Source: Candidatus Saccharimonadota bacterium (GTDB lineage: Bacteria > Patescibacteriota > Saccharimonadia > Saccharimonadales > Saccharimonadaceae). Taken from it: a stretch of 64,000 nucleotides of DNA. This document shows positions 60,835 to 62,277 of this stretch, piece by piece; the first letter of the stretch is position 1, and each line of letters starts with the position of its first letter. The notes under the pieces were generated by a model, which worked only from the letters and a program-made list of their open reading frames with translations, was not told the DNA's origin and ran no database searches. The position numbers and the translations under genes are program-made. Where the stretch lies: the NCBI GenBank assembly GCA_017405265.1, contig JAFRAS010000007.1:3524-67523 (forward strand), read 5' to 3'.

Positions 60835-62277
60835 ATGAAAATTGCGAATAAAATGACGAAAGCTGTCGATTTAGTCCAGGAAGCTCTGGAAAAAGTCGAA
60901 AAATATAAAGACTATAACATTTTCACCTTTGTGAACGCCGAAAACGCCCTGAAAAAAGCCGCGATTATTGATGCAAAAATTAAAAAAGGCGAGCCCGTCG
61001 GCCGTCTCGCCGGTGTGCCTTATGCTCTGAAAGATAACTTCCTCTCGCCCGAGGGCGAAACTACCGCTTCGGCAAAAATCTTGACCGGTTTCACTTCTCC
61101 CGTCACCGCGACCTCGGTAAAAAAACTGGAAGACGAAGGCGCGATTATGATCGGCCGCACCAACCTCGACGCTTTCGCTCACGGCTCCTCGACCGAAAAC
61201 TCTTATTTCGGCGTGACCAAAAACGCGAAGGATAAGACTCGCGTCGCTGGCGGCTCTTCCGGTGGTTCCGCCGTCGCCGTCGCTCTCGATATCGTCCAAT
61301 TCGCCACTGGCACCGACACCGGCGGCTCCATCCGCCAGCCCGCCTCTTTTAATGGCGTCTTCGGTCTGAAACCGACTTACGGCGCCATCTCCCGCTACGG
61401 CGTTGTCGCCATGGCCTCCTCGACCGACTGCGTCGGCTTCTTCACTCGCGAAGCGAGCGACCTCGACCTTTTAATGTCCATCACCGCCGGCCGCGACCCG
61501 AAAGACCAAACGACCTTACCTGACTTCTATGAAAGTTCGGAAGGCGATAAGAAAGACTTTCCGGGACAACGCGCAGGTTACGACCGAGCATTAGCGCGCG
61601 ACACCCGTGACGACGGGCTGGCGCGACGCGTGTCCCGGGAAGTCCTTTCTTATCGCATTGGCGTCATCAAAGATTTTAAATCAGATATCTTAGATAAAAA
61701 AGTCAAAGAATTAAGTGCGAAGGGCTTCGAGATTAAAGAGGTCTCGCTGCCGACGCTGAAATATGCCCTCGCGGTCTATTACGTCACCGTCCCCGCCGAA
61801 CTCTCCTCGAACCTCTCCCGCCACGACGGCATCCGCTACGGTTTCCGCTCGAAAGATGCGAATACTCTCTCTGACCTTTACGAACACACTCGCGCCGAAG
61901 GCTTCATGCCCGAGAACAAGCGCCGGATTATGATCGGGAACTTCGTCTTATCCTCCGGTTTTTACGACGCCTATTTCATGAAAGCCGCGAAAGCCCGCAC
62001 GCTCATTATTAACGAATACGAAAAGGCCTTCCGTGACGTCGACTTTTTGCTCACTCCCGTCTCTCCGAACCCCGCCTTTAAGATTGGTGAAAAAGTGAAC
62101 GACCCTCTCGCGATGTATCTCGAAGACGTCATGTCTGTCCCCGCGAACCTCGCCGGCCTCCCCGCTCTCGCCTTCCCGGCCGGCGAAACCGACAACGGCC
62201 TCCCCGTCGGTCTCCAACTTCTCGGCCCACGCCGTTCCGACGCCGAACTGATTAAATTTGCGGAGGAAAACTTATGA
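60835..62277 (+). CDS. gatA: Asp/Glu-tRNA amidotransferase subunit A
   Basis: KDN, GGSSGGSA, GTDTGGSIRQPA, LSSGFYDAYF. Confidence 0.97.
   Translation: MKIANKMTKAVDLVQEALEKVEKYKDYNIFTFVNAENALKKAAIIDAKIKKGEPVGRLAGVPYALKDNFLSPEGETTASAKILTGFTSPVTATSVKKLEDEGAIMIGRTNLDAFAHGSSTENSYFGVTKNAKDKTRVAGGSSGGSAVAVALDIVQFATGTDTGGSIRQPASFNGVFGLKPTYGAISRYGVVAMASSTDCVGFFTREASDLDLLMSITAGRDPKDQTTLPDFYESSEGDKKDFPGQRAGYDRALARDTRDDGLARRVSREVLSYRIGVIKDFKSDILDKKVKELSAKGFEIKEVSLPTLKYALAVYYVTVPAELSSNLSRHDGIRYGFRSKDANTLSDLYEHTRAEGFMPENKRRIMIGNFVLSSGFYDAYFMKAAKARTLIINEYEKAFRDVDFLLTPVSPNPAFKIGEKVNDPLAMYLEDVMSVPANLAGLPALAFPAGETDNGLPVGLQLLGPRRSDAELIKFAEENL
61544..61656. repeat. Intragenic coding palindrome in gatA, family B
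   Basis: GCGATAAGAAAGACTTTCCGGGACA / TGTCCCGGGAAGTCCTTTCTTATCGC arms. Confidence 0.93.

Follow-up and report, generated by a model that had tools for sequence, protein, structure and literature searches.

Introduction

Among described bacterial repeats, the Rickettsia palindromic elements RPE-1 to RPE-10, which PMC10969869 summarises from Ogata et al. (2000, 2002), stand closest to the element reported here; they are hairpin repeats of 100-150 bp in a small, host-dependent genome, many of them lie in frame in unrelated housekeeping genes, where they add a peptide at places compatible with the protein fold and are missing from orthologues, and no transposase is known for them. [quoted passage not shown] We describe here an element that shares all of the above features of the Rickettsia repeats, found in a stretch of 64,000 nucleotides (positions 3,524 to 67,523 of contig JAFRAS010000007.1, assembly GCA_017405265.1; hereafter the window) from a Saccharibacteria genome. 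It is a complete hairpin of 113 nt, or about 38 codons, located at 61544..61656 on the + strand, as defined by sequence, fold, covariance model and orthologue alignment, and it sits in frame in gatA (60835..62277, +), the gene for the 480-aa subunit A of Glu-tRNA(Gln) amidotransferase. The results below show that it belongs to a family of repeated DNA hairpins that is restricted to one genus and has been gained and lost between species. The family is apparently undescribed: no account of these repeats was found in the literature searched on Saccharibacteria palindromes, Patescibacteria miniature inverted repeats or Nanosyncoccus.

Several other systems bear on the comparison. Repetitive extragenic palindromic (REP) sequences and REPINs are extragenic, imperfect hairpins with bulges and conserved unpaired bases, and the associated RAYT gene (Y1, HUH) is flanked by REPs; they are reportedly recognized as folded single strands, without target duplication and with an orientation linked to replication. 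Single-strand transposases of the IS200/IS605 type produce a strand bias relative to replication. The GC clusters and double-hairpin elements of fungal mitochondrial genomes and the byp elements are small, mobile, GC-rich palindromes, and they can lie within protein-coding genes of reduced genomes. Finally, quasi-palindromes undergo template-switch mutation, reportedly described in 1982 and in later work on E. coli, in which the nascent DNA forms a hairpin, the opposite arm serves the polymerase as template, and an imperfect palindrome is thereby made perfect; the flanking sequence is replaced without a change in length, and the process shows a replication-strand bias.

Results

The gatA hairpin is missing from most orthologues

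The host gene was identified from the list of open reading frames (ORFs) and by phmmer (E 4.5e-117 against the Aquifex GatA structure 3h0l), and a GatA orthologue was present in 59 of 61 genomes of the genus. An earlier reading of the DNA, made from its letters alone and referred to below as the original prediction, had placed a 113-bp hairpin in frame in gatA, and its coordinates and sequence proved right, as did everything else that it states about the sequence: the element encodes the peptide DKKDFPGQRAGYDRALARDTRDDGLARRVSREVLSY between the motifs DPKDQTT and RIGV. A 141-nt stretch around it folded into a single long hairpin of -69 kcal/mol (z -5.4, with none of 200 shuffles equally stable), and the covariance model described below scored 113 bits on the + strand versus 17 bits on the - strand. 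Mapping of the insert on the protein, as the original prediction had proposed, placed it in a variable linker that is a gap in the alignment to 3h0l. In the AlphaFold model of GatA, residues 235-270 of the insert had predicted local distance difference test (pLDDT) scores below 50, between a confident helix (207-217) and a confident strand (274-278). We infer that transcription and translation of the gene include the element, giving the protein an extra disordered surface loop of about 36 residues that would run from the DPKD...TTLPD.Y motif to the RIGV strand.

When 30 GatA orthologues were aligned, 22 of them, including the four closest relatives of the source genome, had no insert at this linker. 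The other eight (the source genome's included) carried inserts that were all DNA hairpins and differed in orientation, reading frame and peptide. In a GatA tree built without the insert columns, the sister clade of the source genome, consisting of four species, was empty; the three + oriented inserts required at least three separate gains, while the - oriented inserts fell in one clade. Compared with the closest empty orthologues, the net gain in gatA was about 96 nt, though the hairpin spans 113 nt. Because several other species have extra residues at the same linker, one might suppose an ancestral segment of GatA, selected as protein and palindromic by chance. This explanation has next to no probability, since it is refuted by the orthologue alignment with its empty sites and empty sister clade, the inserts of other species share only their nature as DNA hairpins, and the same nucleotide element recurs in unrelated genes and between genes.

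A metagenome scan returned as the best GatA relative a sequence about 70% identical over its full length, with up to 83% identity on short partial contigs only, and no near-identical strains with or without the gatA insert. The only RNA-labelled run with part of gatA, X7 (filed as polyA RNA-Seq), yields contigs identical to those of X6, the DNA run made from that sample, and they cover only parts of gatA belonging to relatives; the two runs are probably one data set filed twice, and X7 was discarded as evidence on retention of the insert in mRNA.

The element is repeated in the source genome and across its genus

The source genome belongs to Candidatus Nanosyncoccus (Saccharibacteria) and measures 519 kb in 8 contigs. 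Searches with BLAST and with a covariance model (R1) built from six copies revealed seven copies in this genome, and the scan of the genus yielded hundreds. The gatA copy is in sense orientation. The second copy (9389..9501, +), also sense and in the same codon phase, lies within ORF 9085-10926, which encodes 613 aa, has an acidic linker preceding a membrane segment and matched no Pfam family above its cut-off; this copy folded with z -7.5. The two copies aligned without gaps, with 91 of 113 positions identical, and their best 70-nt window (61565-61634 versus 9410-9479) was identical at 61 of 70 positions, exactly as claimed in the original prediction. A pattern for a 35-nt core with up to three mismatches matched at these two copies only, where no match is expected by chance. 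The difference between CGCG/CGCG and CCGG/CCGG, which had been read as compensatory, is indeed a double compensatory change, located at pairs 64-90 and 65-89 of the long inner helix. The original prediction had counted three copies, and the third was recovered as a divergent one at 34078..34198 (+, sense; covariance-model match of 38.8 bits, E 2e-8), in frame within the spanning ORF 32266-34716, a Wzy_C-GT4 fusion, where, by Pfam, it separates one half of the GT4 glycosyltransferase part from the other. The remaining four copies lie antisense in a Mur ligase gene, antisense in recG between the wedge and helicase domains, between genes, and at a contig start.

The genus is known from ruminant and other animal guts, and its draft genomes are 59-100% complete. 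Covariance-model matches were found in 32 of 36 other genomes of the genus, with up to 32 scored per genome; the four without any match were 80-99% complete. None of the 24 + 148 genomes scanned from 119 other genera of the order gave a match; these included two genera that are sisters within the family. With a strict pattern for one core subtype, at least 120 additional stretches were detected among species-representative genomes, every one in a Saccharibacteria/Nanosyncoccus-type record; Ca. Nanosyncoccus alces was among the organisms represented.

Copies also differed between two genomes that are 96% identical (G036 and G029). Two copies were shared and unchanged, and at two further loci a copy in one genome corresponded to a remnant or to unrelated sequence in the other; no target-site duplication was readable at these two polymorphic loci, where the flanks are remodelled. 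In one intergenic spacer (L022:1350-1750 in G036 versus L165 in G029), a full element stood opposite a shorter, unrelated hairpin with the CACCCGTAAAGACGGGCTG tip only, and because this spacer differs between genomes so closely related, spacers with elements turn over fast.

Covariation and pair types support a structural constraint on DNA

A census of 73 distinct copies from 34 genomes was aligned, and a second sample of 86 copies was used where stated. In the 73-copy alignment 94% of cells were paired, compared with 66% after shuffling and about 40% with the partners slid, and 688 double-sided changes were counted versus 196 expected. The core is a three-way junction of about 80-85 nt, closed by a long outer stem and holding conserved unpaired bases. 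It consists of an inner stem GGGG.../...CCCC, a small hairpin in a near-invariant GGAG...CGAG context, the run A-T-T-A-G-C-G, and a long hairpin whose 7-bp stem is hypervariable, whose CCCGT-RRCG-ACGGG tip is near-invariant and which has a bulge of one base on the 3' side. In the gatA copy, the 73-copy alignment and a conservation profile place this family-wide unit at 61561..61638 (+), with the inner stem CCGGGACA / TGTCCCGG closing the junction. The small hairpin GGT-TACG-ACC (61576..61585, +) has a covarying stem (CG/GC/UA at columns 54-94) and is flanked on both sides by a near-invariant GAG (GCAGG...CGAGC in the gatA copy; consensus (N)CGGAG ... CGAG(N')); its closing pair at columns 47-100 covaries through all four Watson-Crick types. 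The long inner hairpin (61595..61625, +) has the variable stem CGCGC...GCGCG, the near-invariant tip CCCGT-GACG-ACGGG and the one-base bulge on its 3' side; up to four Watson-Crick pair types occur per position of the variable stem, and tandem G.A mismatches occur in this stem in about 20 copies. Outside the core, the distal 5' arm (61544..61560, +) pairs with the distal 3' arm (61639..61656, +), which has its end in the codon for the Arg of the conserved RIGV motif.

The kinds of pairs bear on the molecule under constraint. Watson-Crick pairs made up 92% of the element's pairs, with G.T in 1.9% and A.C in 0.75% of cells, and selection on RNA structure alone would be expected to leave far more wobble pairs. 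The mismatches were one-sided by strand, with 109 A.G versus 7 C.T, mostly tandem G.A at fixed places. These data support a structural constraint on DNA, on one strand, rather than on RNA; thus, the idea in the original prediction that the element is kept for its nucleic-acid structure stands as to the hairpin and is refined as to its level.

Copies survive where the reading frame is kept or between genes

We next considered where the copies lie. Long open frames (at least 200 codons in the census) held 47 of the 73 census copies and 56 of the 86 copies in the second sample, i.e., 64-65%, and the remaining 26 census copies lay between different genes or at gene ends; no gene split by a copy was found among the census copies. 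Nearly all of the 47 host ORFs have a source-genome homologue that aligns across the site and is shorter there, the source-genome orthologues of about 30 genic copies other than those in gatA are shorter at exactly the position of the copy, and the source genome's own Mur-ligase copy is missing from nearly all of 38 orthologues. Of the six frames of a copy, only 2.4-3.1 are free of stops on average, and therefore the universal open frame reflects selection on translation and is not a property of the element. Sense and antisense copies numbered 21:26 in the census and 30:26 in the second sample. Copies occur in either orientation and in each of the three codon phases, with differing peptides, and the gatA copy and the copy in ORF 9085 alone share a frame. 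Survival is thus confined to copies that leave the frame open and to copies between genes. The view of the original prediction that this is a non-autonomous repeated element, comparable to the Rickettsia palindromes, that adds peptide segments to essential proteins is supported by the orthologues, by the further copies and by the position in linkers.

In several species the same linkers hold a copy, frequently in a different frame or orientation; the proteins concerned are LepA, AlaS, ValS, GatB, Der and one unnamed protein. Examples of such recurrent occupation are found at loci L006, L007, L009, L149, L155, L146, L153, L162, L031, L158 and L029, and the Der gene of one genome (G015) has two copies in one gene.

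Some traits of the element are common in functional RNAs, namely its very stable fold, the wealth of covariation, a UACG loop that has a C-G closing pair in many copies, and the tandem G.A pairs. They could point to an element acting at the RNA level, such as a small intron, a ribozyme or a ribosome-skipped sequence, so that the protein would lack the insert. About half of the genic copies are antisense to their host gene, however, and all are stop-free in frame, which would be needless if the insert were removed; in addition, G.U pairs are nearly absent, and no Rfam family matches the element even at E 10. We consider an RNA-level element very improbable, and the suggestion in the original prediction that the insert might be removed from the RNA found no support.

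Orientation follows the strand asymmetry of the chromosome

With the elements masked, the flanks within 5 kb were C-rich on the element's strand for 63 of the 73 census copies (p 1.6e-10), and the same held for 64 of 86 copies in an independent sample (p 6.5e-6). In a hand tally of contigs with at least two matches, 59 of 64 matches lay on the contig's majority strand. The GC skew of the source genome is very strong (0.2-0.28), strand-wide and of the same sign in genes of both directions, and over the window (1-64000) the + strand has a skew of about -0.2. These results show that the orientation of a copy follows the chromosome strand, as marked by GC skew, and not the host gene. The C-rich strand carries about two thirds of the long ORFs as well as the gene for ribosomal protein L2 and is therefore probably the leading strand, in which case the usual bacterial pattern would be reversed. 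The modelled strand of the element would then be on the lagging-strand template and hence single-stranded at the fork.

Strong polarity with a replication-type skew is also seen in known polar motifs, and the element might accordingly be a strand-polarised DNA signal useful to the host, for example a site bound by a protein of replication, segregation, repair or DNA uptake, with its core under cellular selection; near-identical cores between species whose proteins are about 70% identical, and the occurrence in 32 of 36 genomes, are in line with this. In contrast, copy number ranges from 0 to more than 30 among close relatives, the four genomes without a match included; copies are lost or decaying between the 96%-identical genomes; and old copies, e.g., those in GatA of other species, have degenerate cores. 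Moreover, a 113-nt signal inside essential proteins would be costly, and the family was not found outside one genus among the genomes searched. We therefore regard such a host signal as improbable.

Most copies share the core alone, with arms of their own

The original prediction had noted that the outer arms differ in sequence and stay paired. The pairing was borne out; in most copies, as it turned out, the core alone is common and the arms are private. In 23 pairs of copies with 95-100% identical cores, some of them between species, the arms were only about 35% identical, which is the background of unrelated pairs, and across 84 copies of one subtype the information content fell to zero about 10 nt to the left and about 18 nt to the right of the core anchors, delimiting a unit of about 85 nt. 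These private flanks nevertheless pair with each other over a median of 35 bp, versus 12 in a control with swapped right flanks. Orthologous copies differ by paired changes in both arms, and copies with decayed cores retain long, near-perfect arms. The distal 5' arm of the gatA copy is likewise unrelated to most arms in other genomes.

For 29 genic copies with an empty orthologue in the source genome, the hairpin span had a median of 134 nt and the net gain a median of 99 nt, with a cluster of copies at a net gain of 81-87 nt, the length of the core. At matching offsets, the peptides of both arms were similar to the residues of the empty orthologue (p 1.6e-4 and 4e-5), and the similarity was greatest where the net gain was small. 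Taken together, identical cores with private paired arms, small net gains and host-like peptides suggest that the arms are largely host sequence that was rewritten into mutual complements and then maintained as such. Two variants of this explanation were rejected. The core does not land in pre-existing palindromes, since empty sites in the source genome were not unusually self-complementary compared with other places in the same genes (median percentile 0.46, Kolmogorov-Smirnov p 0.47), and the 5' and 3' arms showed no difference that would make one of them always the host-derived arm (Wilcoxon p 0.30).

Two groups of copies in the source genome do have arms in common. The copies in gatA and ORF 9085 are about 65% identical there, and a trio elsewhere in the genome shares the whole hairpin, one member adding the full length of about 120 nt to the Mur ligase. 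Whole hairpins can therefore also be copied.

No association of Y1, TnpB or reverse transcriptase genes with the element was found

A search for a mobiliser of the HUH type, as proposed in the original prediction, was negative for the source genome and most of the genus: the Y1/HUH transposase domain (PF01797) was found in 7 of 86 genomes only, and high-copy genomes that are 96-98% complete (G010, G015 and G021) had no Y1 gene. The TnpB domain was found in none of 41 genomes. Reverse transcriptase (RT) genes (RVT_1) were present in 32 of the 41, and RT was rejected as the mobiliser, being missing from the high-copy genomes G010, G011 and G012 and having no element at the source genome's two RT loci. 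In the families covered (Y1/HUH, TnpB and RT, other transposase families not being searched), no element was found beside a Y1 or RT locus. A viral vector was likewise rejected, with one core subtype tried against 2.9 million viral contigs and no match obtained. The two RT genes of the source genome lie outside the window at the two ends of a 17-kb contig, C8 (L306:1744-3078(-) and 14753-15934(+)); each is next to a gene whose product has a Fib_succ_major domain at its C terminus, a DUF3800 protein is encoded in between, and the two loci look like diversity-generating retroelements.

The element could still be a miniature element mobilised in trans, whose folded core is recognised by an undetected transposase or recombinase, with the private arms arising as a by-product of repair; such an enzyme could be encoded in unassembled DNA, a phage or a plasmid, or could belong to an unsearched or unknown family. 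The unpaired bases, the bulge and the strand-specific G.A pairs do resemble a protein recognition surface, the replication-strand bias is of the kind left by single-strand transposases of the IS200/IS605 type, whole hairpins with their arms have been copied within the source genome, and the completeness of the draft genomes leaves room for a missed gene. Nevertheless, the few Y1 genes are not flanked by elements, the nearly complete high-copy genomes lack them, TnpB is missing throughout the 41 genomes, the copies have no terminal repeats in common, no target duplication was seen, and the one core subtype tried is unmatched in viral contigs. On balance, we judge mobilisation in trans to be rather unlikely.

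Neighbouring genes and other repeats in the window

The gatA gene is preceded by gatC (60528-60833) and followed by gatB (from 62693). The window also holds a separate repeat family of about 100 nt with three copies, two of them in tandem (1542-1721 and 53546-53645), located directly downstream of two tRNA genes (1423-1495 and 53430-53501) and sharing a conserved GGAAGGGCGCGAAGCGATAC...hairpin...GTTAGAGCGAGCGACCTACCA. At 55293-55508, 12-nt tandem repeats (CACGGAGA[AC][ACT]CC and variants) within an ORF encode a Pro/Thr/Glu-rich repeat. Further hairpins were flagged in the original prediction at 50126-50210, 27256-27339, 1782-1947 and 14544-14763; the kinds flagged there were family A palindromes, a small three-way-junction RNA by toxin genes, and nested palindromes in the tail of Obg.

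Discussion

Overall, we consider it probable that the gatA hairpin is one copy of a genus-wide, selfish and non-autonomous family of DNA hairpins, which acts at single-stranded DNA during replication and whose genic copies are translated as disordered loops. The active form would be one DNA strand folded on itself while it is single-stranded at the replication fork. New copies and their private arms would come from copying errors in which the nascent strand folds back and copies its own other arm, a process that would also keep the arms perfectly Watson-Crick. Quasi-palindrome template switching is the known counterpart, and it may act alone or together with a hypothetical trans-acting protein. 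The most far-reaching form of this model is selfish DNA that needs no transposase, in which a core of about 85 nt spreads and persists purely through fold-back and template-switch errors of the replisome, rewriting about 25-35 bp of host coding sequence on each side into a private stem. We put this form forward tentatively, as a possibility that may well fail; if it is true, transposase-free elements continually remodel the linkers of essential proteins in a minimal genome.

Several points speak against the selfish-hairpin model. No insertion event with clean junctions was caught in the G036/G029 pair, and the mode of spread is thus deduced and not seen. The test of arm similarity takes in residues near conserved anchors and may be inflated. 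The dnaA gene (C2:50966-51433, minus) lies on the other strand with no skew change nearby, which does not agree in any simple way with a C-rich leading strand. A transposase could be missed in incomplete drafts, or sit in an unsearched family, a phage, a plasmid or a host bacterium. Cores identical between species would equally fit a protein-binding site that is useful to the host and under strong selection; such identity can also arise by chance because the variable positions are few, and it is not taken here as proof of horizontal transfer. Finally, the GatA structure model reaches only moderate confidence, with a mean pLDDT of 68 and low scores outside the insert too.

The Saccharibacteria and the candidate phyla radiation to which they belong have some of the smallest genomes and are thought to be poor in mobile DNA, yet one genus has up to dozens of hairpins per 0.5-1 Mb, most of them written into essential proteins such as GatA, GatB, LepA, AlaS, ValS, Der, RecG and a Mur ligase. 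With it, the phenomenon seen in Rickettsia has a second, independent case in a very different reduced genome, which suggests that hairpin repeats, wherever intergenic space is scarce, generally end up colonising linkers in frame. Neither the private arms over host sequence nor the strong polarity with replication is explained by any described bacterial repeat family, and both offer a route to studying how hairpins spread without a dedicated enzyme. In practical terms, the inserts break contigs, inflate protein lengths and create spurious lineage-specific segments in marker-gene alignments.

When the family is set beside known systems, the REP/RAYT and MITE classes each fail on defining features. 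With REPs, REPINs and the IS200/IS605 group it shares hairpins with bulges, conserved unpaired bases and an orientation linked to replication, but about two thirds of its copies are genic and the rare Y1 genes (7 of 86 genomes) are not flanked by it. Bacterial MITEs are marked by terminal inverted repeats common to all copies, by target-site duplications and by a parent insertion sequence. Like them, the members of the family are small, non-autonomous repeats that sometimes lie in frame in genes; unlike them, they have neither terminal inverted repeats common to all copies nor a parent insertion sequence with the same ends among what was found here, where Y1, TnpB and RT alone were searched. 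Template switching is known for point and complex mutations and not for building arms of 25-35 bp or for spreading a repeat, and its role here is a proposal of ours. The GC clusters, double-hairpin and byp elements are likewise small palindromes inside protein genes of reduced genomes, but they are organellar, and byp elements are skipped by the ribosome and need no frame, whereas here the frame is always kept. The likeness to the Rickettsia palindromic elements is one of behaviour only, and we do not claim membership; homology is not expected because the host belongs to another phylum. In addition, only the core of about 85 nt is common to the copies described here and most arms are private, no conserved peptide in a single frame is encoded and all six frames are used, orientation follows a replication-type strand asymmetry, and the same linkers have been struck repeatedly in different species.

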